DNA of 60,849 bases, filler included, from Dugesia japonica (lineage: Eukaryota): the NCBI GenBank assembly GCA_001938525.1. It is 5 parts of 5 records of this genome, joined end to end, with 100 filler letters (N's around TTAATTAATTAA, not from the genome) between each part and the next. Parts side by side here need not be neighbours in the genome. Positions count along the whole stretch, not along the records: positions 49,955 to 60,849 come from MQRL01622172.1; 4 more parts are not named here. One strand, written 5' to 3'. The notes beneath the pieces are model-generated. The model had not been told where the DNA came from. It saw nothing but the letters and a program-made list of their open reading frames with translations, and did not search any database. Below, piece by piece: positions 18,660-60,849 of this stretch. The first letter of the stretch is position 1; every line of letters starts with the position of its first letter. The translations under genes and the position numbers were made by a program.

Positions 18660-20480
18660 GGTAAACCAAAATTATCAAAAGTAACGCTTATTTCATCTGT
18701 ATATTTTAATTTCTTGCTGCCTGATCCGTTACATAACTGCTCTAAGATCCTTAAATTTCAAACGTAGTTTTTCTAAACGTCTTGTAATAATTACAAATTT
18801 TCAAGAAACTTCGTAACTTCTTCACACAGTTAGGTTTGGTAAATGTTCTTATTCCTTCTATTTTAGACGGATCAGTTCTAACACCATCCTTGCTAATTAT
18901 GTGTCCAAGAAACGTGATTTCGCGTTGAAGAAGCGGACACTTTTCTGGAGTAATTATTAAACCAGCCTTCATTATTTACATCAATACTATGTCAATGACT
19001 TCATAGCGTTGATCTTTATTTTTCGTTAATATGAGAATGCCATCAAGATAAATGGTGGTTCCATTGATTCCGCCTACCACTTTTGTCATCATATCTTGAA
19101 ATGTCCCTGGTGCTATTGCGATGCCAAATGGCATTCTATTAAAACAATGTTGTCCGTGTTTCGTTGAAAACGTCATTATTTCTTGAGATTCTTCTTCGTG
19201 CTCTCTCTGATAGTATGCATTTCCTAGATTTATTGAACTGAAATATTTGGCTCCATCTAATTTTTCCAGCATGTCATCGACATTAGGCATAGGAAATGCT
19301 TGACTTTTCGTTACAGCATTCAATTTTCTGAAATCCAAACATATTCTTATGTCCTTCTATTCTTTTTTTCTAAACACAGATCAGTGGGGTATTCCATGGA
19401 GAGTTGTATTTCTGGATAATATTATTCTCGTATAGGTTTTGGATAGCTTCTTCAATTTGAGATTCTAAGTTTATTGGTTGTCTATACGGTTTTACATTGA
19501 TTGGTTCACCACTTAGATTATTTTGTGTCTTGTCAGATGTGTGCGTCTTACATAATATTTATCTGCCATAAAAACATCTTCTTTACTTCCAATTATTTTC
19601 AATTATTTTGGATCCTCTTTAATCTTCAAAATATTTAAGGCTAATGTCAATTGTTCTCCTTTTATAAATTTGTTTCCCAAATTTTGCTTCAATATTACAA
19701 ATGTAATTTTCATCTACCTTACTATCAACCTTTTGCATAAACTGATATCCAAAAATCTTCTGCATATTTATTCATGCTATCAGATCTGGTTTCACTCTTT
19801 CAGTAACTAAAAAGTAATCTCTTTGCAAGCATTATCAATTATCACTACCGATCTAACTTTCCCAACAATTTCAAGTGTGCTATTATTTACACAACACAAT
19901 CTTTCATCACTCATTTATAAATATATTTTTTGTAATTAATGAAAACAATTCAAACTCATACCGTTAATTCCAGCCCATTACATTCAACTTACATAAACAT
20001 TCAACTTTATTTCCTTGAATTGATACCGTAACACTTGGTCTGGTTTACAATTTATGATACAAAATATTTGTTTTCTTTTTTGCTTCAACTGTTCCAACCC
20101 ATTCTACTTTTCTATCATCCGCAAAATTTTCCCTCTTTAAGAACTTTAATTTAAATAAACTTGAATCTCTTCATTTCCACGCCTGTAGTTAATCAAATTT
20201 TGAAAAACTTTGATAAAATCTTTTTCTTTCTCAAATGTCACACTTAAGCGAGCCTGAAAACCTTCAACTTTTTCAACGTCTTTGCAAATTTTTCTAACAA
20301 ATCTTCATCGAGCAAACAAGATACTAATATATCATGTTGTTTTGTTTAGGTGATGTTTTTAGCTTCAAAATACAATTCACACTGTTTGATAAATTTCTCA
20401 ATATACTCTTCTCAGTAGAACACATTCGGTAATAACCTCTTTGTAATAAAATCGGTATTTACCGCTGCCACCATGTTAGG
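18660..20480 (-). mobile_element. Ty3/gypsy LTR retrotransposon remnant (PBS, gag, RT), same family as 17804 in opposite orientation
   Basis: Same LTR-end/PBS at 20461-20479. RT segments DFRKLNAVT...FSSINLGNAYYQ...RMPFGI...IYLDGILI and EITFLGHIISKDGVRTDPSKI. Confidence 0.9.
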
Positions 20481-27534: not shown

Positions 27535-28990
27535 CTGGGATTTTACCAGTTTCTCTAACATAAGACACACTATTTGCAGCTAAAACCCCTATATTCGCTA
27601 ACTTATCTATAAAAGGACTAAAAACAACTTTCTTCAAACAAAAAATATCGCTATCTACACTCGCTAAATCAGTTACTTCCTTTTTTCTCAAAATTGTAAC
27701 TGTATTCTCTAATATAACTCTTACTGTACACATTTGAGCCCTCTTCACACTTCTCGTACTATTATCTGGACCCTCGGATACAGTGCTCTAAAGTTTTCTG
27801 CTAACTCTCTTATTTTGGATATGAAAGGTACTTTTATTTCATCTACAGTTACACAGTCTAGTTTTGGTAAAATCNAAATNTTCATTTTTTTCATATCTCT
27901 TATTCCTATTATGACTTTTGGGAACAATTTATCTACAATAGTCATTCTAATTCTATTAGTTTTATTTCCCATAGTTACATTTATAAAAGAATATTCAATT
28001 ACCTTAATTGGTGAGCCATTTGCACATGTTAACGCCTTGTTTGATCGAAGCAGCTTGACTTTTTCTTTTTCTCTGATCATTTGAAATAGTTTGAAATCGA
28101 TGATGCTAGACTCTGCTCCAGAATCTATAAAAATTATCTCTTCTTCTTGTTCTACTTTGCATTTGATTATTGGTTTGTTTGCTGCGAGTTCGCTTCTTGT
28201 ATCTGATATCATTGTTCTTTGTCCTTTGTGAATTAGAAATTTGTGTCTTGAACATCGAATATATTTATCCAACTTAATAATATCGTCTGGGTAGTTGATA
28301 TTTATTTTTGTTTTTTCTTGTCTTTTAGTTTTCATTTCTTTCGAAACAATTTGGAAAAATTCATTATTATCTTCAGATTCGTTTTCATAATCACAACTGG
28401 CTTCATCATATTCAATATTAGAATTGTCATTTGTTTCTTCTAGTCTTCGAAAAGCTTCTTTCTGAATATTAGATCTTTTTGCTGCTTGGAAAAATCGAAA
28501 TATATGCCCGGCTTTGTTACAGTTCCTGCATAGCAATGGTTTGTTACAATATCGAGCAACATGACCTTTTCTGTTACAATTATAACATTTTAATTCTTGT
28601 TTGAACTTTTGAACTGCATACTTTGGAGAATATGTTTCATGGTTTCTTTCCAAATACTTTATACGATTTTCAAGCTCAATAATTTTTCGTTTTAATATTT
28701 CCATTTATTGCTATTTTTCTGTGTTAACATCATTGCTAATAATTCGCAATTTATCATTTTGTCGAGTTTTATCTTCTTTTTTTCAGAAAATTTCCGTGGC
28801 TCTGTCTGCCAAACGATTATTAACCCCTTTCAAAAATATTGATAAGAGAGTCTTTTCTCTATCAAATTCATCATAATCTGGCATTTNNNNNNNNNNNNNN
28901 NNTCTGATAGCAGTTAGATACTGTCTAAGAGTCATATCTTCCTGCTTCAAGGATAAAATATTAATTATTGGAGTTACCTTGGTTGACTAA
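27535..28990 (-). mobile_element. Ty3/gypsy gag-protease region
   Basis: ORF 27745-28704 carries the CYNCNRKGHVARYC knuckle, a second degenerate knuckle and the aspartic protease motif FIDSGAESS. Confidence 0.9.
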
Positions 28991-38703: not shown

Positions 38704-39660
38704 GTTGGTCAATCGTCACACGTGGAAGTCGCCAAATTTAGTCCGGACGGTCAATATCTGGTTACTGGAACATTAGATGGATTCATTGAAGTTTGGAATT
38801 TCGTTACTGGCAAAATTCGTAAAGATCTCAAATACCAAGCCCAAGAAAACTTCATGATTATGGAAAAAGCCGTTCTGAGCCTCGGTTTCAGTCGTGATTC
38901 AGAAATGCTTGTTGCCGGCTCTCAGGACGGTAAAATCAAAGTGTTCCGAATACAAACCGGACAATGTTTGCGTAAATTCGAGAGAGCTCACGTGAAAGGC
39001 GTTACGAGTGTTCAATTCTCGAAAGATGGAACGAATATCCTGTCGGGGAGTTTCGACAAATCTGTTCGTATTCACGGAATGAAATCCGGCAAGTTATTGA
39101 AGGAGTTCAAAGGGCACGCTTCATTTGTCAACGATGTTATTTACGCACCGGATAATCAACACATAATCAGTGCGAGTTCTGATGGTACTCTCAGGCTGTG
39201 GTCGCTGAAAACCGGAGAAGGCACGATCTGGCGGGCGTATTCTGGGCTGGTGGGACAGGAGGCACCGATTCACACGGTTATGCCGGTCCCCAGGAACACA
39301 GATCAGTTCATTATCAGCAACAAGACCAACACTGTCGCTATTATCAATATTCAAGGACAAGTAAACCGTTTCTCTATGGATTTGATGAGTTAAAATCGAT
39401 TTTAGATTGTCAGGAGTTTCTCGGCACCGAAACGAGACGGATCGAATTTCGTATCGACCATCATCAGTCCGAAAGGCGAATGGCTCTATTGCGTTGGGGA
39501 GGACAAATTGTTGTACTGTTTCAATTTAATGGTCGAGAACAAGTTGGAAAGAACCATTCCGATTCATGATAAAGATGTTATTGGACTTGTTCATCACCCC
39601 CATCAGAACTTGATTGCGACTTATGCTGAAGATGGCTTGCTCAGATTATGGAAACCGTGA
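38704..39660 (+). CDS. SMU1: WD40 repeat spliceosomal protein SMU1, last two exons (38704-39360, 39406-39660), 5'-partial
   Basis: [40 protein letters not shown]... and the terminal [22 protein letters not shown] match recalled SMU1. 45-nt GT-AG intron; AATAAA at 39681. Confidence 0.96.
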
Positions 39661-44660: not shown

Positions 44661-45106
44661 AATATTATTTGTTGGACGTAACCATTGATCGTAATTCAAA
44701 TAAAAGAAAAAAATAAATTTTACTCAAAATAAAAAAAATTGTTAGTAATAATGATAGTCAATTCCTAAAGAAAACAAAGTCTATATATAAAATTATTATC
44801 AAAAACAAAAAAAAAACAAATTTTGATCGAAGCTTTTATTTTAATGAATTCTAATATTAGAACTTCAGGCACTTTTTAAATTTACAAACAAAAATATTTT
44901 GATGTACAACAACTGTAAAACAAAACTTACTAAAAACATAATATACCTATTTTTACTGCATTTTAGCCAGACTGTATAACTAGGTTTTGGTGTACATATA
45001 TATTTTCATAATGATTAATAATCAAATTATAAAGTATATTGATGTGTAAAAATGTAATAATATATTGATTGCTAAAAATGTTTTAAATATTAAGCCTTTG
45101 TGTAAA

Positions 45107-48100
45107 ATGTCGAATAACAAAACAAATAATTTCTCTGTTATAGATGTTGATAAGAATTGTGTAAAAGCAAATGTGTCAGAAGATCAACGACCTTTAATAA
45201 ATTCCGGAAGATATAATGTTAAAAAAATGCCGGAATTACGAAAAACACACGCTAATCAAAGTAATACATTATATGGAGATGGTCATCATTTACGTCATCA
45301 GAATCACACTTCCACTGATCCGATTCTTAAAAACCGTTATAAATCCTATGACTATTTGCCAGCGAGGCAACCTCATATGAATCATTATAAAGGTAACACT
45401 CATTTTTATCAAGACGGATACAATGAATATAGTGATTCTGGAGGTGATGTCAATGAAACGTCTTATGAAGCACTTAATAAATTTCGTAAATCTTATTCAT
45501 ATGGTGGTATGAAACCATTTTCTTCAAATGAGGAATTGGATAATTCTCACATGTACGATGTTGAACCAAATCATTCATCCGATAGTTCAAGACGATATCA
45601 ATACAAGTCTAGGTGTTTCAAAGATAATCATAATGATTATCATAGAAAGTCTCGACATGCAGAATTTGAAAATAGAAAATATACTGGCGATTCATGGAAT
45701 TATGAAAATACTTCGAACTATCAAGATCCTCAAAGATATTCAAGATATTCTCCTGTAAATACATACATAAAAGGCCAATGTGAATCGAGAGTTAAACATA
45801 ATACAAGAGGAACTAGTTATCCAAGTTATCTTAATAACAACAGAAGTGATACTTTATCCAGAAAATCACATAATACTCCATTATCAACAGAATTTCAATC
45901 ATCTAGATACACTGACGTTAATAATGATAACTATTCTACTTATTGCAAGGAATCTCCAAATAGAAATATGCTAAGTCTGAAATCTACTTACAGAAAAAAT
46001 GAAAACATTCCTCATTCTGGTACAAAACTAGAAAATCATAGGAAACATTTTGATAAATATTGTACAGGACGAACTAGGGAAACAAGATTCAACGAATCAA
46101 ATAATTGTGATGATTTACGAAGGCATAATTCCATGATTGTAAACAAATCTAGTAAAGGGTTTAGATCAAATCTACCACCTTCACCTAAATATTCAGCTAC
46201 AAGAAAGAAATACAGCGATCTAGGAAATATTGAAAGTAATAAATATGGCAGTAGAGAAACTTATACCACACCTCGTCGATCACAAATGTTTTCTAATGAG
46301 CGTGGTAGTGACGAAAGTTGCTATTTTGAGAATTGTTATAATACTAATAAGTAAGTTAATTTTTTGATGTTTAATTTTGATAAATTTAGAAATAATTAAA
46401 TCATTTAATTTTTAAAAATAAATTTTCAATTTTTGAAATCATTAAATTTAAAAAATAAAAACATCAAAATTTATTTTTTATTGTCCATAATCTTTGTTGA
46501 TTATTTGATTTTCAGATTTTCACTTTTTTTCTCAAGGAAATTAAAATTTTTGGCTTACATTTTTTAATTTTATTGAAAATTAAAATAAAAAGAATATTGG
46601 TTAATCCAAAATTTTTTAAAGAAATAATTATAATTATAAATACATTTTATCGTAGTTAAATGATAAATTATCGTAACTGTGGCAAGGGGAGAGATAAGTT
46701 TTAGCAAATTTAAAATCATTAAAAATTATTTGCGTTTCTTAATGAAACAAAATCGTGGAAGTGGATTAGCTATTTTATAAATTGAATATGATTTGTTTGA
46801 AAAAACAAATTTCGATAGCATAATAAACGAGTTTGCTAGCATTAAAGTAAGAAAAATTAAATTAAAATGCTAACTATTGGGTTTGTAGAAATGATTTAAT
46901 TTGAAGTTAATACATGTTGAATATATGAATAAATATGTATGTTGAATTTATAAATAATTTATCTTTATACCTTGTTTTTTTATAACAATTTAAATAAGTC
47001 AAAATTAAAAATTTTAAATCAATTTTTTGTATAAGGGGTCATCCATAAATGATATCACACGATTTTTGGATAATTCTTTACACCCCACCTTCTCACACTT
47101 AGTCACAAAAAGTCAGAACCCCTCAAATATGACGTCAAACATTTATTTCTANNNNNGAAAATTTACAGGTTCCAAATTAATATTTGTCATCCTTTTTAAT
47201 TAATGAAAGACAGAGATAGCGATGTTCAGCCCAGAGTTGTGTCCAGCCTCAAATATGCTTCCCTGATGCTCAACAGTGCACTATTTGGCTCAGGTAGAGA
47301 AATATATTAAAATAGTTAAAATTCAATACTCTCATTTATTTTGATGTGACATCACATATCTTAGAACCCTCTCGCACCTCGTCACAAATGTATGAACCCC
47401 CTCCTCTAATCGTGTGACATCATTTATNGATGACCCTTAATGCATATTACATAGTTATGATAGAGTGTGCCATTTTAAATGTTTGTCATAGGCGCCATAA
47501 ACTCTAGATATGGCTCTGATGATAATTAAATGAAATGGAAGTTATATTAGTCAATAATTTGAAATTCAATACAACAAAATTTATTGATTTTTATCCTTAA
47601 ATATAAGTGATTTTAATTTAAATAAATTTAAGATAGAAATTTAAAATTTTAATTCACAAATAAAATAAATAAAAAAATTAAAATTAGAAAATTTCTTAGT
47701 TATAATTTTCTATATTATTCTGAGTTTGTACAATGTAGACATTGTTTAATTTTAAAAATCTGGTTTTTAAGTCCATTAATTATGTTAACAATTTTCATGA
47801 AATTTTTACCCCTTCCCATTTGTCAGTAACTCTCAAACTTTTAGTGACCCTCTAATAAAATTATGTCAAAAAAGTTTATTCCTACCCCCTAAATTAATAA
47901 TATTTTAACTAAATATTTTGATTTGTTAAATTTATCGTAAAAAATTGTTGATGTCAATTTATCTTGAGCACCCTCCTCCCTATTGTCAACAATTGTCAAA
48001 TTTCTTCAAACCACGCCGATTTTGTTGAAATAATTTATGGAATGTCCTTTCTATTTACATATTTTATATTAAATAATAGTAAATCTTTTAATTTAAGAAT

Positions 48101-49954: not shown

Positions 49955-51565
49955 ATTAAAGGTGGTGGCTGCGATTTGCCTGAGCACTCTAGCCCCGATC
50001 CCTTTGTCCCAGATCTTGATATCGCTGCTGACAAAGTAAGGGATTTTGCAAACAGTCTCATACCTAGTAACCAATATCTTGTCGCCGATTTAGCGCTTTC
50101 AAAGGCTTGCATCCACATGGATGATGATTATATCACCGATGTGGTTGCTTTCAGAGACTTCAAATCTCTTTCGATGATTTTCTGCCCCTTCCTGGCCTCG
50201 GCCCTCTTTGTCTTTGATATTGCTGGCAAGGTCTCTTACTTTATTGACCCTTAGGCTGATCATGGTGGTGTGGTCGCAAATGAGACAGTTCTCTGACTCC
50301 ATCTGTGCATGTCTGAGTTCTGTCGCACAAAAGACATCACCCTGATCGAGGCTCCTTTCACTCTGACTACTTTCCATAGAAATGACAAAGAAAGTAGTCT
50401 GATGGTCTGTGGCTACGTCAGCTCGCTGTCGAATTTTAAAACAGTGAACAGAGTTGACTAAGCCCGCCTAAGGGTAAAATTCACAAATTTTAATAACACC
50501 CATAAAATTAAAGGGGACATTAAAATTAAAGGGAGGGATGAAAAACATGGCGCTAATAAAACTACTCAGGGTAAAATTAGCGACATGTTATCCACAATCG
50601 ACAGAAGTGATGTTAATTCAGCTGTAGACTCATTCTACAGCTTTGTTCACTCTGTTCGATGTATGAGGCCCAAAAATTTGAATTTTAAAATTGGCGAGGG
50701 CAAAACTGGAAAGCGCGCCGAGTTAGACATAAACCTGCGAGATCGGTTNNNNNNCTCACAGAAAGCAGTCTTTGAGCTGATTACAAATGAAGTGACAGCT
50801 GACTGCTTTCCATCGTAGGTTGATCTCGAAGGGTATTTCCAGTCTAAAGCTGATGCTGGACCCCTTACTAACTGGGATTTTCGCCCCCCTCATAAAATCT
50901 GACGAGGATGGTTTCGAATTCCACTGTCCGGATGCACCTCAAATAAGACGCATATTTTATGGACTATCTGTGTCAGCTCCTGGTCTTAATAACATCACAT
51001 ACCAGGATCTGAAATCCGCAGACCCAAAATGTGCTCTTATTCACCAACTTTTAAAGAAGATCTTATCTTCTGGTGTCACTCCGAACAGCTAGAAAACATA
51101 CTCGACGCTGATGATTCCGAAGCCAGGCAAAGCTGGGTCATACCATGAAGTCTCATCATGGTGACCCATTGCTTTGCTGGATTGTCTGTACAAACTCTTT
51201 ATGGCTTGTCTGACATCTCATTTGTCGAGTTGGGTGATGAGGGAGAAACTGCTACATAACCTCTATAAAAGTGCTGGTGAGTTGGAAGACTGCTGCGAAC
51301 ATAATTTTCTGCTGCGATGTCTGCTGGATGAGCCGAGCCGATATTTCAAGTTAACTTGCATATTGGCTTCCTAGACATTGCGGATGCTTTCGGCAGCATC
51401 ACCATAGAGCACATTCTTGGTCTGCTCACCAGAATGGGTGTCTATGAGAGTTCCATCAAACTGATACGAGCTCTTTACTCCGACTGCTCCAGCTACTACA
51501 CTTGCAATGGAACTTCCACTAGTCCCATTGCAAACAAAAGAGGCGTCCGACAGGGTTGTCCCTGA
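49955..51565 (+). mobile_element. R2/NeSL-like non-LTR retrotransposon ORF remnant, truncated in RT
   Basis: APGLNNITY (SPGxDG-like), LMIPKPGK...W*PIALLDCLYKLF, CCEHNFLL, FLDIADAFGS, RGVRQGCP. Contains stops and frameshifts and ends abruptly after QGCP. Confidence 0.85.
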
Positions 51566-52859
51566 CTTAAGCAAAAAAGAGTGTCAACAAATCTATAAAT
51601 TTTGAATTCCGCTAACTTACTACAAGGATATTGATTCAAGTTTTGAAAAATAACCACTATAATCAGCCACTATTAAATCAAGTAGTTAGTTGAAGACACA
51701 AAATTTGTTTTCACCATTAAACAATTCACTTTAGAAAATACATTGATTCCAAAGAGATTGAAAAAAGAGATCATAGTGACAACTAAACGGAAAACCAGTT
51801 AATTCCTCAAGATAAAAGAAAGAAGTGATTAGCCTCACAAATTATTCATCTCCAGGTTTCCAATATTTACCCGTTGCAGAATCAAATTTTAATTAAAAGT
51901 AAAAATTTGTGTATCATTTATATTATAATGTTGTGTCTGTTATATATAATAAATGTTATTTAGAAAATAAAATATATTACGTTATAATAAGAGAAAAATC
52001 AAGTTAATGATTGAATTAAAATACCAAATTCACGATTAGTTTTATTATTATCCAATAAATATCCCACTGCTTTCTTTTTATCCTAGATTTCATAAATTCC
52101 AAAGCGACACGAACCGTCTAATACATTAATTCCACCACCAGAGAAAATAATCGTGAATAAAATTTTTTTCCTTGATAGGATAGAGTAAGACGACAATATC
52201 ATCTCGCAAATTTATGCTCCTGCGAATATTGTATGAATGTTAATGGTGACGTGTTATCTAGAAAAATATCTTCCACCTATCCACTCTAGTTGAAAATTGT
52301 GGATTTTGTGTCAGTAAATCTCTTATAGACTTGATCAACGATAGATATCCTTGTTTGCTCAATCAGAGTCAAAAAATGATAGTTTGGCTGATACACGATG
52401 GGTATCTGATGACTAATATTTACGTTCTAATGAGTGTGTGTGCCACCGGTAGTTGAAAGTCAAGGAAAATTTTTGTTTAACTGAGTTGCCAAGCAACCAG
52501 GCTGCGTGCAATTTCAAAAACCTAATAGCAGTGATGTAATAAGTAGTAAGCTTCATATGATCGCAATAATCGTCTATGACTTCGATATTATTATTATCGC
52601 TCTTAAAAACGTTGTTATATTTACTAGCTCCCTCAGTATTATGGTTAATATCACTCTGGCTATTACCATCACAACCCGTCACTATTTAGCGTTGCTAATC
52701 TTTACTATCCACACTGCTATTAGCAGGGCTATTTTTATTAATTCAATATTTAGTAGGGATATCCTTTAATTATGTTGATTATTAACGGAATTGTTGTCAT
52801 TATGGTTACCAGCGGTAGTATTATTGACTCTATCTTAATTATTACTATCATTATCACCA

Positions 52860-52867
52860 TTAACATA

Positions 52868-52935
<68 letters not shown>

Positions 52936-52985
52936 NNNNNNNNNNNNNNNNNNNNNNNNNNNNNNNNNNNNNNNNNNNNNNNNNN

Positions 52986-53022
<37 letters not shown>
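52860..53022. repeat. (ATT)n microsatellite inside cassette copy A
   Basis: Direct reading; same relative position as the tract at 55760-56110 in copy B. Confidence 0.9.
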
Positions 53023-53265
53023 CGTTTTATCACGGGTAACATTTGGTTAACATTATCGTCCCGTCTAAGATAAGACAGACTATGACGCGACAAACCATCT
53101 TAAATTCCTAATAGGGATCAATAAGTATAAGATACAGTTAACCAGCAAGCCAAGAGTGCGTTGTGTGAACGAATTATTTTATAAATAAAAATCAGCAGTA
53201 ATGATGCGGTAGTTTATAGGAATTTGAATCACGAGTCTGATTTACCCTTCGTTTTTTCTATTTAG

Positions 53266-53462
53266 TCATGTCAACTGAGTTACGTCGTACCCTTCAATGG
53301 ATAAAAAGGCAACGTCAAACTGTTCGGGTAAGACAGCTCATTGCTCATTTGTTGACTAAGGGGAGGATTGAACACCCAGATGTGACCGATCTTTGCTGTT
53401 TAGCGGAGAAGTTTCCCTCCATGGTCCCCGTAGATCTAGATGCAGAAAATACGCCTTTCTAG
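53266..53462 (+). CDS. Cassette A ORF1: small basic protein with a DLCCxxE motif
   Basis: Acceptor ttctatttag|TC; homologous to 56413-56609 with many synonymous differences. Confidence 0.7.
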
Positions 53463-53590
53463 CCGGAATGTACTTTGCTACTTATTGTTATCCGTGTAAA
53501 TATAATTAGCCTTGTTGTTTATTCTTCCAATAATACTTTTTTTAAAAGAAATATATACCTATTAGGAATTAAACAAATTTTTTTTATTAG

Positions 53591-53935
53591 GAATGGAGTC
53601 TATCTGGGAGAGTCGTCGATAGGAGAACTCGTCGAATAATCTTTCGAAGACACCACAACCCGCACAATCGGGAAGCAGGCATCTTGGCCGACAGGTCTAA
53701 TTTGCCTCCGGTAGAGTCTATAATATCTCGTATAAGAGATTTTGGGGAAAGACAGTAGTACAAAAACTGGACAGGACCTGCGACCTCCTTCCACTACCAA
53801 GCTCCACCTCCACTTCCAGCTCCTGCGGTACAAGCTTTTATAACTAACCTACTCTGGGGAGTTAGGGAACTAACAGGGGTGACGGACATTGAAAACACCG
53901 CCCCTAGTGTTAACAATAATGTGAATTCCCAATGA
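53591..53935 (+). pseudogene. Cassette A ORF2 (frameshift near the start and an internal TAG)
   Basis: ttattag|GA ATG GAG TCT ATC TGG. Aligns with intact 56764-57117 (DRRTRR, HNPHNR, ILADRLN, QAFIxNLLWG). Confidence 0.75.
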
Positions 53936-54090
53936 TGTTTGTCTTGTGGTTACAAAATAAATTAATAGGTGTCTTAATTATTGTCAGTCTATGTTATGTT
54001 TACATATGTTTGATAAGCTAAAATTTCGTTGATTAAAGAGTATCCTACTAGGCTTAGTAGTAATCAGATTTTAAAAAAATAATATTTTAG

Positions 54091-54449
54091 TGCAATCCTC
54101 CCTGAAAAAATCCCAGGCTCCACATAAAAAGCTACGTGAAACAAGTGAAGACCTGGAACTCACATGGGATCTTTATAGACTAGCTAAAAGGCGATGGGAA
54201 GCGGAGACCGCCGTGGCCGAGTCTAAGGTGAGACGCTATAAGCTGAAATGTCTAACCTTTAAAGCAGAGATGGCGGCCACCCAGAATCAAGAGAGCGTGT
54301 GGAAGTCCCAAGTCGAAACTTTTGCCACGATTATCATATCTTACCAAGAGCGTGAGAATCAGCTCTTCGATAATATATTGAAGTTACGGGCCGCTATTCC
54401 TTTAGCCCCCCTCTTGATCGATAAAGGTACTCAGACTAACCGCTCCTGA
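54091..54449 (+). CDS. Cassette A ORF3: coiled-coil protein with C-terminal KGTQT
   Basis: Acceptor attttag|TG with no ATG at the 5' end of the exon; homologous to 57360-57718. Confidence 0.72.
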
Positions 54450-54565
54450 GTTAACATATCTACTATTTTGTTGCTTTTAATAAATTATTTTATTTGTATC
54501 TTTTCTAATTTGTTTCTCCAATTTCAAACTTGATACTCGCCAACTTAACTATAATTTTTATTTAG

Positions 54566-54945
54566 TGACTCGAATTAATTTCCCCAACAGCATCCGAAGG
54601 TGCCATCGTATTATGCGACGTCTTCTTATTGAGAGACACCTAAAACATAAGGCGGATAGGGCCATATTAAAACATTTAGACCAACGAGATCAACTTATAA
54701 AAAGATTGGATTTGGTAATACATAAACAAAATGACTTAGCAATCCAAACCAAAGCCCTAGAGGCAGAGAACAAGAAGTTACTGTTGAGAAAAATAGATTT
54801 CTTAAAACAGTATATCGCGGATCTTTCCCGACAAATTGGGAATCCAGCTTGGATTCACTGGAATGACGACAATGTCACCGCTTTCAACTTTACAATGGAC
54901 GAACCAGACCAATGGCTAGATCCTAGCGTATTAAACGACCTATGA
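54566..54945 (+). CDS. Cassette A ORF4: basic region, coiled coil and acidic/aromatic tail
   Basis: Acceptor tttatttag|TG; homologous to 57850-58055. Confidence 0.72.
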
Positions 54946-55008
54946 ATGTTATGTTAGTAAATATTCCGAGAAACATTGGTTTAACTTTTTGTGAAAAATA
55001 AGGGAAAA

Positions 55009-55188
55009 TATTGAACCCGAATGCAAAGGTTTGTGGGCGCGCACCTCCTATTAAGAGTGAGGTCAACCAACATGAACTGAATACCTACCCTAGAGGCAGT
55101 AGGTTAAATTCTTGAACGGGTTCCCCTGAGGGCTGTTTTTACCTCAGCCGCAATTTGATTACCCTCCAACTCAGGTGGAACCCCAACA
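55009..55188 (+). mobile_element. Putative 3' LTR (180 bp) preceded by a polypurine tract
   Basis: AAGGGAAAA followed by TATTGAACCC...GGAACCCCAACA. Homologous copies at 58113-58246 and from 60702 (minus strand). Confidence 0.7.
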
Positions 55189-55759
55189 AGTTTATTATAT
55201 TGAACCACGTCAAGTTCATAATTATCATCGCTCAATCGAGAATGTAATTCAATACCGGTGTGTCATGCAGCGTGTTTAGACGATTTGGACACTGGTAGTA
55301 TCTGAGCATGTGTGTATCACCTGATCGATGAACGAAAATATCCAGGTAACCAAGCAACTATGTTGCGCGGTAATTTAAACCTCGGATTTCACTTAATTTA
55401 ATAGAAATGTGATTAAATAAGTTTTTTCATTAAGTATCAGTTTGAGGGGTGAAAACATTCAAAAATCATTATTATAACATCACAAGTTTAATAAATTTTA
55501 CGGAATACGATTACTTCGGTTAATAAGTATATTGTTAATACTATTATTAGTATTATTGGCTTTCTTAACATTGTTCCTGTTCATAGTATTTTAATTAGTA
55601 CTATTCAAACCTAGTTATTATTTATTATTATTATTATTTATTATCCCTCTTATTGGTAGGGGTATTATTATTAATTTGACTATTAGTGTTACTATATCTA
55701 TAGTTAGGTTGATTATTATTATTATTATCATTATCCTTATTACCCTTGGTATTGTTGTT

Positions 55760-55765
55760 ACCATG

Positions 55766-55805
<40 letters not shown>

Positions 55806-55956
55806 NNNNNNNNNNNNNNNNNNNNNNNNNNNNNNNNNNNNNNNNNNNNNNNNNNNNNNNNNNNNNNNNNNNNNNNNNNNNNNNNNNNNNNNNNNNNNNN
55901 NNNNNNNNNNNNNNNNNNNNNNNNNNNNNNNNNNNNNNNNNNNNNNNNNNNNNNNN

Positions 55957-56014
<58 letters not shown>

Positions 56015-56110
56015 GTTATTATCATTATTACTATTATCAATGTTATTGTTATTATCATCATTCTTATTATATGATTGTTATTATTATTATTATCATTAAT
56101 TATATCGTTA
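55760..56110. repeat. (ATT)n microsatellite inside cassette copy B
   Basis: Direct reading; includes an N gap. Confidence 0.9.
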
Positions 56111-56412
56111 ATATCATTATTACTGTTGTTGTTGTCATTATTATTGTCAGTATGATCACCGAAATTCATAGATCATTATCCCTCATAAGAAAACAAAGTA
56201 TTTGGTTGTCCTTACCATCGTTACGACGAGTGTTATAAATACTATTAAAATCCCAATAGCGACCATTAAGTCTAAGCTAAAACTATTTAGTAAACCAATA
56301 TCGCAGTATGGGAATGAGCCGTTATATTGATAATATTCGGCTCTAATGTTAAAATTGTTCTGTAGGAGTCTGAACCACGAGTTATGATTTACATTTCATT
56401 TTCTCTATTTAG

Positions 56413-56609
56413 TCATTCCAGTCGAGTTGTATCACACCCTCCGATGGATAAAGAAACAGCGTCAAACCGCTCGATCGAAACAGTTAATCGCCCACCTATT
56501 AAACAAGGGAAGAATTGAACACCCGGATGAAACAGATCTTTGCTGTTTCACGGAGATGTTCCCCTTAGTGACTTTAGTGGACTTAGATGCGGAGAGCATG
56601 CCTTTCTAA
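56413..56609 (+). CDS. Cassette B ORF1
   Basis: Acceptor ctctatttag|TC ATT CCA GTC GAG... with no 5' ATG. WIKKQRQT...QLIAHLL.KGRIEHPD.TDLCC is conserved with copy A. Confidence 0.7.
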
Positions 56610-56763
56610 ACAGGAGTGTAATTCGCCCATGACCGTTAATGGGCTAAAATAAATTATTGATTCGATTAATTCTATTTGTTGTTTATTATTATTAACATTA
56701 GTTAATCAAAAAAAAAAGATGATTATAGACGATACTTTAAACCGAATTCCTGTTAATTATAGA

Positions 56764-57117
56764 ATGGACTCCATCTGGGAAAGGGTGATAGATAGAAGAA
56801 CTCGTCGACTAATCTTACGAGGATATCACAATCCACACAATCGGGACGTGGGAATTTTGGCTGACCGATTAAATTTTCCTCCGGTAGAATCTATCGTTGA
56901 ACGCATAAGAGATTTCGGCGAGCGACAACGATACCGAGCATGGACAGGCCCTGTTCGCACCCTGCCAACACTTTTCCAGTATCAGCCTACAATGCCACCC
57001 CCAGCTCCCGCAGTGCAGGCCTTTATCTCTAACTTGCTCTGGGGGATAAGAGAGCCTTCGGATAGCGAAGACTCGGAAAATACCACACCCGTACCGGATT
57101 CATCAACTCCTCCTTAG
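56764..57117 (+). CDS. Cassette B ORF2: Arg-rich N-terminus, Pro-rich middle, acidic Ser tail (117 aa)
   Basis: attatag|A ATG GAC TCC ATC TGG; intact frame, homologous to copy A ORF2. Confidence 0.72.
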   Translation: MDSIWERVIDRRTRRLILRGYHNPHNRDVGILADRLNFPPVESIVERIRDFGERQRYRAWTGPVRTLPTLFQYQPTMPPPAPAVQAFISNLLWGIREPSDSEDSENTTPVPDSSTPP

Positions 57118-57359
57118 TGATTAAGATGTGTGACCTATAACTTATCTGGATGTTATGTCCTTGTTTAAAATATATGTTCGATGTTCTGCGTAAATTTTAA
57201 GAGATTTTTTGTTTATTCCTCGTTCACAAGTCATTTTCTAGGTTTGTGAATCAATTTGGGTGGTTTAGAACTTAATAATCAAATTTGTGACTACTGTGTC
57301 GTTTTAGAAACTTAAAGTTATGAGAGTTATTGTCGAGATATATATATTTTTCTTTTTAG

Positions 57360-57718
57360 TGCATTCCTCGTCCAACCGTCCTCCCGCCCCTACTAAGAAA
57401 TTCCGAGATACCAGTGAAGAGCTCGAACTCACTTGGGATTTATATCGACTAGCCAAACGTCGATGGGAAGCTGAAGTAGCCGCGGCCAACAGTAAGGTAT
57501 TACGTTATAAGAAAAAATGCGCCCTCTTTAAAAAGGAAGCAGAAGCCTCACATTCCCAGGAGCGCCTTTAGAAGAGACAAGTAGAGTCTTTCTCGGAGAT
57601 GATCTGGTCCAGCCACGACCGAGAAAATAAACTGGTTAGCGATATTTTACTCCTTCGGGAAAAAATCCCTCTCGAGCCGTTAATGATCGAGAAGGGCACC
57701 CAGACCCCCAAAAGCTAG
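57360..57718 (+). pseudogene. Cassette B ORF3 (internal TAG at 57569 in place of TGG)
   Basis: Acceptor tctttttag|TG. Homology to copy A continues past the stop to LMIEKGTQTPKS*. Confidence 0.75.
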
Positions 57719-57849
57719 TCATTTGGAAATATTTTCTCTTTGTTAATAAACTTATTGTTCAACTTTTCTTATGGATTCCGTTATTGTTTTAATGTTTGCT
57801 TGAGATCTGTGGTCGAGCGCTGGTACATTTAACTTATCTTATTTTTCAG

Positions 57850-58055
57850 TGCCTCACATCAACTTTCCCAATAACCTCCGTAGGTGCCACCACATCATGC
57901 GCCGACTTCTGATCGAAAGACATTTGAAGCGTAAGACAAACCGGGCTCTGCTTAAGCATTTGTCTCAGAGAGACAGATTGATAAAGAGGTTAGACCTAAT
58001 CGTGAAAAAGCAGAGTGATCTCGCAGTTCAAGTGAAGGCCTTGAACGTATTGTAA
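57850..58055 (+). pseudogene. Cassette B ORF4, 3'-truncated relative to copy A
   Basis: Acceptor atttttcag|TG. INFPN..RRCH.IMRRLLIERHLK is conserved; similarity stops after KAL. Confidence 0.7.
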
Positions 58056-58112
58056 TAAACGTTTCCAGTGTAACTGAAAAAGATTTGAATGTTAGTATAA
58101 GATAAGGGAAAA

Positions 58113-58246
58113 TGATGAACCCAAATCATGAAAGGTCAAGAGGTCAACCACCATAAGTTGAAGACCTAACCTGGGGCGTTAGATTAAATTCTTGAAAGGG
58201 TACCAGCCACCATGATTTTTCACTCAACTCAGGTGGAACCCCAACA
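58113..58246 (+). mobile_element. Putative 3' LTR (internally deleted copy) preceded by a polypurine tract
   Basis: AAGGGAAAA followed by TGATGAACCC...CTCAGGTGGAACCCCAACA. Confidence 0.7.
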
Positions 58247-59699
58247 CTATTATTCAGTAATTTAATTTAATTGTAAATGTTGCGTTCTGAATCTAAACAC
58301 ACACATATAATATAACATAGCATGCAGACATACAAAGCAACATCTTTCAGAATCAATGTACGAGCCAACACAAGATCAGATCAACCAATCTCACAACCAA
58401 TCTCAAAAACCAAAGCAATAAAACAATTCTATTTTGTGAATTAATCGGAAACATTTGTTTATTCTTATTTCATTGGAAACATTCGCTTTATTTTAATCTG
58501 AGACATTTAATTGAAAACATTGTTTTATATTATTGTGAATATTTATTTTATACTTTAATTTTATTTTTATTATGAATAGTTATTTTATGGATAAAATTNN
58601 NNNNNNNNNNNNNNNNNNNNNNNNNNNNNNNNNNNNNNNNNNNNNNNNNNNNNNNNNNNNNNNNNNNNNNNNNNNNNNNNNNNNNNNNNNNNNNNNNNNN
58701 NNNNNNNNNNNNNNNNNNNNNNNNNNNNNNNNNNNNNNNGAATCCAACCTCTCTGGGCGGCATTACTAGTTCGTAATCTAATATATTGCTTCTAAGTTGT
58801 AGAGTGTTGACATTTATATTTGATATACATCAAAAATAAAGTTTTATAAAAGGTATTGCTTAATCATTTATATAAGGCATATACAATATATCACCATATT
58901 TATAAATTGTCGTAATTATCATTTATATAATATTGTATTCACATAACGAAAATACAACATTCATAAAATCAATAAAAATATTTACTAGATATAAAATAAG
59001 CGAACCATAAAATCTTTTTGTTGAGTTGTAATACCCAACATAAAAATTCTATTTTTTTCTTGACATCGACCATTTTTATTTAAGATTTTTATTCACAAAT
59101 TTTAAATACGCATAGAGCCTTAAAAACTACAATTCTGGTGTAATTTTAAACAAACTTGTTGGGCTATAACAGCTGGAAAAGAGAAATAAAGTATGATAAA
59201 TAATGAGATCGGTAATTTAAATAGCAGTACGAAAATTTTCACTTTAAATGTATGCTTGATTGATTATGATTACGATGATGATGATGATGATTATGTCTAT
59301 TTCGTCTATTAGCGGTGTGATTTACTAACATAGTAGGCACTTGTTTATAAAATAATAAATTTCTGTTATTATGTAGCTGATTAGAGAGCCTTAGAGGATC
59401 TACCTTAGTTTTACTCCATTGTTTGCACCAGGCCTACAAAAAGTTAATCCGGCACTGATTAACTAGAGGGAGCTGGTTTCCCTCTTGCATCACTTTTGTT
59501 TCTATTAATCAAGGAAGCGGAATAGCTTACTCAGATCAAATTTTATTTAGATACCGATTTCATAATTATTTAACAATATTACTGTTTAATTTTTTCCAAA
59601 CGACAAAAAATGCATCAAATTAAATCCTTTTTACTGACGTTTTATGAATGTTGTTTTAGCACTAACCGAGACTAATAACAAGAAGACTTGATAACTAAT

Positions 59700-60600
59700 T
59701 CAATAACCTATACCAAATAAATTTGTAATGATTTGGGAATAATTATGGGACATCGATGTAGAAAGAAAACACGAATGACTGGTGAAAAATGAAAGGATTT
59801 AGGATTGCCATAAAGTATTAAGTAAAGGCGAGAAAAATTTTCCTCGTTGGATAATGGGATTCAAGAAAAAACTTTGAGATTTTAACAGCTTCATGTTCTT
59901 GCTGATAAATATGCTTTTTTTTAAACCGTTGAATCTTTTAAATGAAAATTATGAGTGACGTCTAAATAAATAAATTTGACTATATTGACCAGGAGAAATT
60001 TCTCGTAGACAGAAACTGATTGCAACATTTTGTTGTTGATGCTGCTAAGCAAACTAAAACAGAAACACAGATGGAAAGTCCTTATAAAGTTTTGCAGTTT
60101 ATTCAAAATTATAGTCTCAATGTCAAATATTGTTATATTCTTGAGAATTTTCCTCATTATTGTTGCTAGTGTAGACACTTGAAAGAGGAGTTTCTCAAAA
60201 TTAAAATTACTCAAAACCTATTTAAGATCCATTATGAGTAGCTTGTGGTTAGGAAATCTTGCTATACTCTCTATAGAACACCAGCTGACAGAGAAGATAG
60301 ACTTTGACGATGTTAACGAGGATTTCGCAAACATGAAAGCAAAAAAAGTAGTATTATACCGTTAAAATGATCTTTTTGCCTTTTTGTATTTTTGCATAAA
60401 TTTATTTCCTTTTAATTTTTATTTTATTTTTACTTTAGATGTTTTTCACTAAAACAAAACATTTTTTAATGAAATATTTTTAAGAAGAAAATTGTTTTTA
60501 TAGTTTTGACTTTTTGTAAATATAAATAATATATATTTGATTGAGGGGCGTCAAATTTTAGGGACCTCCCCAGGCGGAATATACCGTCGCTACGCCACTG
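59700..60600 (+). mobile_element. hAT transposon 3' remnant with right terminus
   Basis: RSFSKLKLLKTYLRSIMS...LGNLAILSIEH...FANMKAKK dimerisation domain; terminus GCTACGCCACTG (CAGTGGCGTAGC-type TIR). Confidence 0.85.
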
Positions 60601-60701
60601 ATTTTTACGAATGACAAGCTAGCTACGAAGTCATACTATGATATCAGAAATCTACATAAATGCCAAGGTCACATTAATATTCCAAAGTCTTCTAATACAA
60701 T

Positions 60702-60849
60702 TGTTGGTGTCCCACCTGAGTTGAATGACGAAAACGATGGCTGGGGAAAAGCAGCGCTCAGGGTAACCCTTTCAAGAATTTAGATACACCGCCCCAGGGT
60801 GGATTTTCAGTTTATGGTGGTTGACTTCTCCGTTAATGGGAAGTGCGCG
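60702..60849 (-). mobile_element. Third copy of the same LTR, opposite strand, cut by the window end
   Basis: Reverse complement reads ...GTCAACCACCATAAACTGAA...AAATTCTTGAAAGGGTTACCCTGAG...CAACTCAGGTGGGACACCAACA. Confidence 0.75.

Follow-up and report, generated by a model that had tools for sequence, protein, structure and literature searches.

In the springer subclade of Drosophila errantiviruses, splicing joins the env gene to an AU dinucleotide belonging to its start codon (bioRxiv 10.1101/2023.08.03.551782), and foamy viruses possess an internal promoter for their accessory genes (PMC3185809). Here we describe a cassette of four short open reading frames (ORFs) that appears to combine features of both. 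It lies in a stretch of 60,849 nucleotides (nt) from Dugesia japonica (assembly GCA_001938525.1; five parts of five records joined by filler of 100 Ns, positions 49,955 to 60,849 coming from MQRL01622172.1), hereafter the window, where it is present as two diverged copies in tandem, A (~53100-55188) and B (~56245-58246). Based on the comparison of these copies, we propose that the ORFs are reached through alternative 3′ splice acceptors and that an upstream exon ending in A would complete the start codon of ORF3 and ORF4 (A/UG), with ORF1 and ORF2 using their own ATG; we put the probability of this reading at roughly 0.6.

Copies A and B are 67-80% identical in aligned blocks. The GC content of the window, which includes assembly gaps, is mostly 15-32%, and rises to 35-43% in the cassette ORFs and the region just upstream of them. 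The ORFs and the block that precedes them are arranged as follows:

53100-53265, plus strand: copy A, conserved non-coding block before ORF1, 67% identical to B (z 12.6)
53266-53462, plus strand: copy A, ORF1, 64 amino acids, after AG 53265, with its own ATG at 53268
53591-53935, plus strand: copy A, ORF2, after AG 53590, with its own ATG at 53593; disrupted by a frameshift (near 53605) and by a stop codon (53756)
54091-54449, plus strand: copy A, ORF3, 118 codons, after AG 54090 and opening with TG; the first ATG is codon 60
54566-54945, plus strand: copy A, ORF4, 125 codons, after AG 54565 and opening with TG; TAAC at -19, ATG at codon 16
56245-56412, plus strand: copy B, conserved non-coding block before ORF1, with donor-like sites at 56270, 56290 and 56381 and an extra AG at 56365
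56413-56609, plus strand: copy B, ORF1, 64 codons, after AG 56412, with no ATG at the place of that in A
56763-57117, plus strand: copy B, ORF2, intact, with its own ATG at 56764 and AG 56762 (phase 2, weak tract)
57360-57718, plus strand: copy B, ORF3, after AG 57359 and opening with TG; premature stop at 57569, unconserved in-frame ATG at 57320
57850-58055, plus strand: copy B, ORF4, shortened to 67 codons, after AG 57849 and opening with TG; TAAC at -19

Judged by their substitution pattern, the four short ORFs are conserved protein-coding genes under purifying selection. Mismatches between A and B at first, second and third codon positions number 11/16/33 of 64 in ORF1, 8/3/25 of 49 in ORF2, 37/25/69 of 112 in ORF3 and 19/8/43 of 62 in ORF4. 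Silent sites are saturated, and the proportion of differing replacement sites (pN) is 0.17-0.29; in ORF1 a pN of 0.18 stands against a proportion of differing silent sites (pS) of 0.77, and in ORF3 a pN of 0.29 against a pS of 0.75. Both copies also show decay, which in A takes the form of the frameshift and stop in ORF2, and in B of the premature stop in ORF3, the short ORF4 and an ORF1 head without ATG.

The original prediction held that the ORFs begin at conserved splice acceptors, with junction letters AG/TC at ORF1 and AG/TG at ORF3 and ORF4, and mostly open in phase 1. These letters are present in both copies, and at all six ORF1, ORF3 and ORF4 acceptors the long frame lies in phase 1, with phases 0 and 2 closing within 0-34 codons. 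The TAAC branch-like motif claimed before ORF4 likewise stands at -19 in both copies. The AG and the two letters that follow it are kept in all three of these ORF pairs, and across positions -5 to +2 the copies are identical at 8 of 8 letters at ORF1 and at ORF3 (P ~8e-4 each) and at 6 of 8 at ORF4 (P 0.055), taking as baseline the 41% A/B identity at third codon positions. The spacers between ORF2 and ORF3 and between ORF3 and ORF4 score like shuffled sequence when A is compared with B (z 0.4 and 0.2), and the sole YAG (Y, pyrimidine) common to the copies at aligned places within them is the one at the ORF start. Moreover, a T-rich tract, with T at 8 or more of the 11 preceding positions, is found at six of 111 plus-strand YAGs across the two cassettes, a threshold chosen post hoc after the table had been seen. 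All six mark ORF starts; none of 96 minus-strand YAGs has such a tract, and ~2.4 would be expected anywhere in an equal length of sequence at the background rate of the window.

Other parts of the claim need qualification. Homology between the copies was said to begin at the tract and AG, which is the case at ORF3 and ORF4, with their shuffle-like spacers, but not at ORF1, where A and B share 67% identity over the preceding 150 nt (z 12.6), homology begins at least 165 nt before the AG and similarity reaches back into the TAT repeat. A good pyrimidine tract is present at six of the eight ORF starts; neither ORF3 of A (54090) nor ORF2 of B (56762) reaches 6 T. The AG of ORF2 does lie just ahead of its own ATG, by 2 nt in A and 1 nt in B, but the resulting phase differs between the copies (1 in A, 2 in B); the two AGs are not aligned, and the spacer between ORF1 and ORF2 holds no YAG common to the copies at aligned places. 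The combination of tract, YAG and branch-like motif is conserved beyond chance at ORF1, ORF3 and ORF4, and not at ORF2 in both copies.

The cassette belongs to a multi-copy family, for which one contig set gave 267 pieces, mostly less than 95% alike. Depth is greatest over the ORFs and toward the 3′ end and smallest in the spacers and the block upstream, with X1 reaching 6718 in bin 55100-55182 vs ~100 in ORF3. Further copies indicate that the acceptor is conserved at ORF3. Among the 24 contig pieces listed, 250 others lying beyond these, four, from copies ~83-87% like A, begin their match to A exactly at TTTTAG (54085) before ORF3, following 10-68 unaligned letters that hold TAAC at -17; because sets X2 and X4 come from the same study, these four pieces probably represent two distinct copies. 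Over ORF4, the pieces listed begin at 54543-54557 and thus include the tract. Taken together, the original observation is confirmed in part, comparison of the DNA, in the two copies and in the further ones, lends good support to the acceptor reading, and the conservation between saturated copies indicates that the AGs are under selection.

We then consider where translation could begin. An absence of own start codons, as predicted, is found for ORF3 and ORF4 and not for ORF1, whose ATG at 53268 in A is missing from B. In ORF3, no ATG precedes codon 60 in A or the stop in B, and the in-frame ATG at 57320, upstream of the AG in B, is not present in A. In ORF4, codon 16 is an ATG in A (54613) as well as in B (57897), and Met16 is conserved. 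Nevertheless, selection acts ahead of these codons: pS is 0.89 and pN 0.15 over codons 1-15 of ORF4, and in ORF3 the values are 0.88 and 0.35 over codons 1-15 and 0.58 and 0.21 over codons 16-59. Because ORF4 is conserved before Met16 and ORF3 from codon 1, the start has to come from the AG itself or from a point upstream of it. TG follows the AG at four of four ORF3 and ORF4 starts, against 107 of 1761 YAGs in positions 1-49000 of the window and 11 of 111 in the cassettes with these four included (6-10%). At the other ORFs the letters after the AG are TC (ORF1) and GA or A (ORF2), with an ATG right behind in three of four cases.

At ORF3 and ORF4, then, the rest of an ATG stands directly after the acceptor, and pS far exceeds pN in codons 1-15. 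An upstream exon ending in A would explain in one step both the TG of ORF3 and ORF4 and the own ATG of ORF1 and ORF2. The original prediction had left the choice between a fused leader peptide and a start split as A/TG; the split fits better, because both ATG-less ORFs open with TG in both copies and because the phase of ORF2 is not kept.

The block before ORF1 is where such an exon might be sought. Its 165 nt are conserved, and the last 51 nt are identical between A and B at 42 of 51 positions, above any ORF. A coding role for the block was rejected for want of codon periodicity (mismatches 15/14/12). In both copies, donor-like sites with an A in front occur at 53125/56270, 53145/56290 (GC in A, GT in B) and 53235/56381, and an additional AG is common to the copies at 53219/56365, with TAAT ~19 nt upstream; in A, AG 53219 and GT 53235 would bound an exon of 15 nt (53220-53234) ending in A. 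Since none of the donor-like sites is strong and A is common in the block, they are mere candidates, and the search for the single shared phase-1 donor of the original prediction gave three A-preceded sites present in both copies, none of them convincing. The block is a candidate internal promoter or leader exon, with a putative branch point and tract; the donor may lie within it, transcription then starting internally as it does in foamy viruses, or in a 5′ portion that these copies lack.

The cassette is part of a multi-copy mobile element, likely a long terminal repeat (LTR) retroelement. Under the mechanism we envisage, splicing would join the upstream exon to the 3′ acceptor of each ORF, placing that ORF first on its own mRNA, and the A at the end of the exon would complete the start codon of ORF3 and of ORF4. 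At ORF1 and ORF2 phase need not matter, because their own ATG lies 1-2 nt behind the AG. ORF3 and ORF4 would not be made full length from unspliced RNA, so that the choice of acceptor would set which small protein is made. The ORFs were originally described as mutually exclusive terminal exons, which seems slightly off; they are more likely served by alternative 3′ acceptors, the transcript running on through the downstream ORFs.

Several observations weigh against this proposal. The copies share no strong donor, the paired sites reading GTATAA/GTCTAA, GCAAGC/GTAAAC and GTCTGA/GTTATG. None of 12 joints listed has GT..AG ends, the loose-end rows covered being 11 of 127 and 18 of 276, and the 55 raw RNA reads are too few to test splicing; four runs, read in part (6-26%), gave 6, 36, 4 and 9 reads, none of them at least 95% alike, and RNA depth in the bins at the acceptors is almost nil. 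Contigs across the ORF3 and ORF4 acceptors are unspliced, as expected of genomic DNA or of ORF1 and ORF2 messages; set X1 behaves like DNA, and an RNA origin of X2-X4 is a guess. ORF4 could start at Met16, and ORF1 of B, having no ATG, must be called decayed. The letters after the AG were compared in the two full copies only. Finally, neither copy is flanked in the window by gag, pol, a primer-binding site or a second LTR. On balance, the original interpretation is supported in part, in its acceptors and in its split-start option; a single donor was not found, and no junction was seen among these few reads.

The conserved phase admits another reading. A shared upstream exon with its own ATG might add a short leader peptide to all four ORFs through a phase-1 donor, which would account for phase 1 in all six ORF1, ORF3 and ORF4 frames and in ORF2 of A, and for the missing ATG of ORF1 in B without invoking decay. 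There is precedent in env, to which splicing adds a short peptide in ZAM and Beagle, or a Gag peptide in idefix (bioRxiv 10.1101/2023.08.03.551782). We consider a leader peptide rather unlikely: it does not predict TG at the ATG-less ORFs in both copies, where the G would fall at a largely silent position and saturation has been reached at silent sites, and ORF2 of B is in phase 2. The sole upstream ATG common to the copies (53201/56346) closes after three codons in A and is not in phase 1 at the B donor 56381. Moreover, a profile search with ORF2 among 1.84 billion proteins gave two matches, of which P0001 (94 amino acids, E 3e-10), a real-looking distant relative, starts at a Met matching the own Met of ORF2. 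The lack of one convincing donor, together with the several donor-like sites and the extra AG in the conserved block, would suit real acceptors served by several donors or small promoters with no single shared leader. This we regard as improbable, given that the same phase and the TG in two ORFs suggest one donor, and that the spacers before ORF3 and ORF4 keep only the acceptor and so leave no conserved promoter or donor between the ORFs.

That no junction has been seen would also be consistent with no splicing at all, with ORF3 and ORF4 starting on polycistronic or separately initiated RNAs at downstream ATGs or at the in-frame GUG that the conserved AGTG provides. By the usual rules of initiation context, the GTG is poorly placed (T at -3, C or A at +4), and such a scheme leaves unexplained both the T-rich tracts and AG before the ATG-bearing ORF1 and ORF2 and the TAAC at -19/-17; we judge it quite improbable even though the small ORFs of MDG1-group elements are expressed unspliced (PMC11952523). 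A start supplied in trans has some appeal in this lineage, as flatworms have a spliced leader with AUG at its end, capable of serving as an initiator (PMC9851317). Its terminal AUG would read phase 0, which is closed after 0-30 codons at six of six acceptors, and trans-splicing is therefore a very remote prospect. Equally remote is chance occurrence of T-rich AGs in an AT-rich element, for which one may cite the ~2.4 T-rich YAGs expected, the weak tracts at two of eight starts and the fact that the shared phase of three ORFs alone is a 1 in 9 event; six of six T-rich YAGs at ORF starts, kept between saturated copies and marking the onset of coding selection, speak against it, and further copies already indicate AG conservation at ORF3.

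The wider element was examined through the sequences that flank the ORFs:

52323-53022, plus strand: copy A, upstream region and TAT-rich tract with an assembly gap; B counterpart at ~55195-56145
55000-55008, plus strand: copy A, purine tract resembling a polypurine tract (PPT), its nine letters identical in B (58104-58112)
55009-55188, plus strand: copy A, LTR-like terminal segment, 180 bp, ending in CAACA, very high copy
58104-58246, plus strand: copy B, purine tract (58104-58112) and LTR-like terminal segment of 134 bp, ending in CAACA
60702-60849, minus strand: third copy of the terminal segment, ending in CAACA and running off the end of the window

Hallmarks of LTR elements are a purine tract and, next to it, a terminal repeat of the form TG...CA whose short ends are inverted copies of each other. 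Both A and B have the same purine tract followed by the terminal segment, and CAACA is the last sequence at each of the three 3′ ends; loose ends show that other copies part from A immediately after 55188. The first five letters of the segment match the inverted complement of its end at four of five positions, with only B starting in TG. This suggests that the cassette is internal and sits just before a short 3′ LTR, the place where complex retroviruses keep accessory genes. Because no gag, pol or primer-binding site adjoins, LTR membership is likely rather than established, and the copies may be truncated or solo repeats. In a search for target-site duplications of copy A (2.9 kb), an exact 5-nt match was found before TG at 51644 and a 4-nt match at 52385; for B there was no exact match. 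The 5-nt duplication would make A a unit of 3545 bp (51644-55188), fitting a cassette inside a long LTR, and could be due to chance. The similarity of B to the upstream region of A starts right behind the end of A, which fits a fixed 5′ edge; this similarity (52323-52594 vs 55195-55475) is weak, its score being reached by none of 300 shuffles and not being significant in a wider search.

Several features of these flanks were noted in passing. The nine letters that open the terminal segment of A (55009) recur at 55198-55206, right behind its end and where the upstream region of B begins. The terminal segment may fold: at 55060-55188, 58138-58246 and 60702-60829 (minus strand) a closing stem is common to the three copies, and inner hairpin arms have changed yet still pair, with folding better than that of shuffled sequence in copy A only (z -2.5; others 0.8 and 0.15) and no Rfam match. 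A TAT-rich tract precedes each cassette copy (52413-53046 and 55595-56172), and in both copies it can be read as frames rich in Ile (plus strand) or in Asn (minus strand), non-repeat codons being interspersed; the tracts are possibly a decayed antisense ORF.

Searches with the products returned little. Pfam gave no match at curated cut-offs for the seven cassette ORF pieces, and Rfam and ARAGORN found nothing. Word-based searches for homologues of ORF4, ORF2 and the ORF3 alignment were empty within the near lengths and non-fused forms that they covered, Atlas searches with ORF4 and ORF1 yielded no usable match, and among PDB sequences the best E value was 0.11 for ORF1, with no match for ORF2. 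The second profile match to ORF2, P0002, was rejected as a relative on account of its repetitive sequence. No loci related to the cassette were present in the viral and metagenome contigs searched. By inspection the ORF3 product is helical and coiled-coil-like; predicted folds are of low confidence (predicted local distance difference test, pLDDT, 58 for ORF2 and 56 for ORF1). With no family or named relative found, and P0001 as the one match to ORF2 retained, the four ORFs are candidate new protein families. Gene callers miss ORFs of this kind, a possible reason for the near-empty results of the protein searches.

Elsewhere in the window, GC-richer fragments at 49960-51565 resemble a non-LTR retrotransposon, and a frame at 51332-51565 ends without continuation at a GVRQGCP motif, which we take to be that of a reverse transcriptase. 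Other LTR elements, unlinked to the cassette, are represented by a gag-protease-like ORF with a zinc knuckle (27745-28704, minus strand) and an RVT_1 fragment (18976-19356, minus strand). Positions 38704-39393 hold a WD40-repeat exon of a host gene (Pfam WD40), presumably SMU1-like and unusually GC-rich for the window, followed by an AT-rich 14-bp satellite. A low-complexity ORF of 434 codons at 45050-46354, without a Pfam match, ends in a stop followed by a good donor-like GTAAGT. A short GC-rich stretch at 60540-60602, ~100 bp beyond the end of the third terminal-segment copy, resembles the inverted terminus of a DNA-transposon miniature element.

The closest parallel to the proposed start codons is the springer env gene, a retroelement ORF without a start of its own that is completed by splicing, the codon being split at the junction (bioRxiv 10.1101/2023.08.03.551782). 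There the split is AU/G, a single envelope gene is concerned and the junctions were mapped experimentally, whereas in the cassette A/UG is predicted for two of four ORFs, which show no likeness to env and whose junctions are unseen. The mechanism has precedent, and the DNA evidence is strong, the RNA step being unseen. In Drosophila, MDG1-group elements also carry small accessory ORFs, sORF1 and sORF2, under purifying selection in an LTR element (PMC11952523); those lie upstream of gag and are unspliced, while the four ORFs of the cassette sit ahead of a PPT-like tract, each with an acceptor-like site of its own. The giant Gypsy-like elements Burro and GYPSM1 of planarians, compared here by description only, share thousands of copies, tandem repeats and accessory ORFs with the element (PMC6431247), but the accessible parts of that paper mention no spliced small-ORF cassette, and no Burro protein domain, sequence match or physical link was seen for the cassette. 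Nor was a spliced multi-ORF cassette in a flatworm element found described in the literature covered, including the accessible parts of PMC8532177, PMC11410931 and PMC13524379, which took in few subscription papers and no supplements; ORFs of this type may figure in the supplementary material to the papers on Burro and on errantiviruses.

In layout, the cassette resembles the accessory regions of HIV-1, HTLV-1 and foamy viruses, with their several small 3′-proximal genes and alternatively spliced mRNAs (PMC3185809), and differs from complex retroviruses in having no sequence or family likeness to them, an invertebrate-type AT-rich genome and no linked gag, pol or env. It is conceivable, and we suggest it only tentatively, that an invertebrate retroelement has independently evolved a complex-retrovirus-like accessory region of at least four novel small proteins, each selected through its acceptor, with an internal promoter and one leader completing two starts, possibly the A-ending micro-exon of 15 nt. 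The exact junction positions given here can be looked for in existing RNA data, and the four new families would be possible regulators or counter-defence factors of a very abundant element. If the proposal is correct, two proteins would be locked behind a start codon that exists only after splicing, and an invertebrate mobile element would control a panel of novel small proteins by acceptor choice, as complex retroviruses do.

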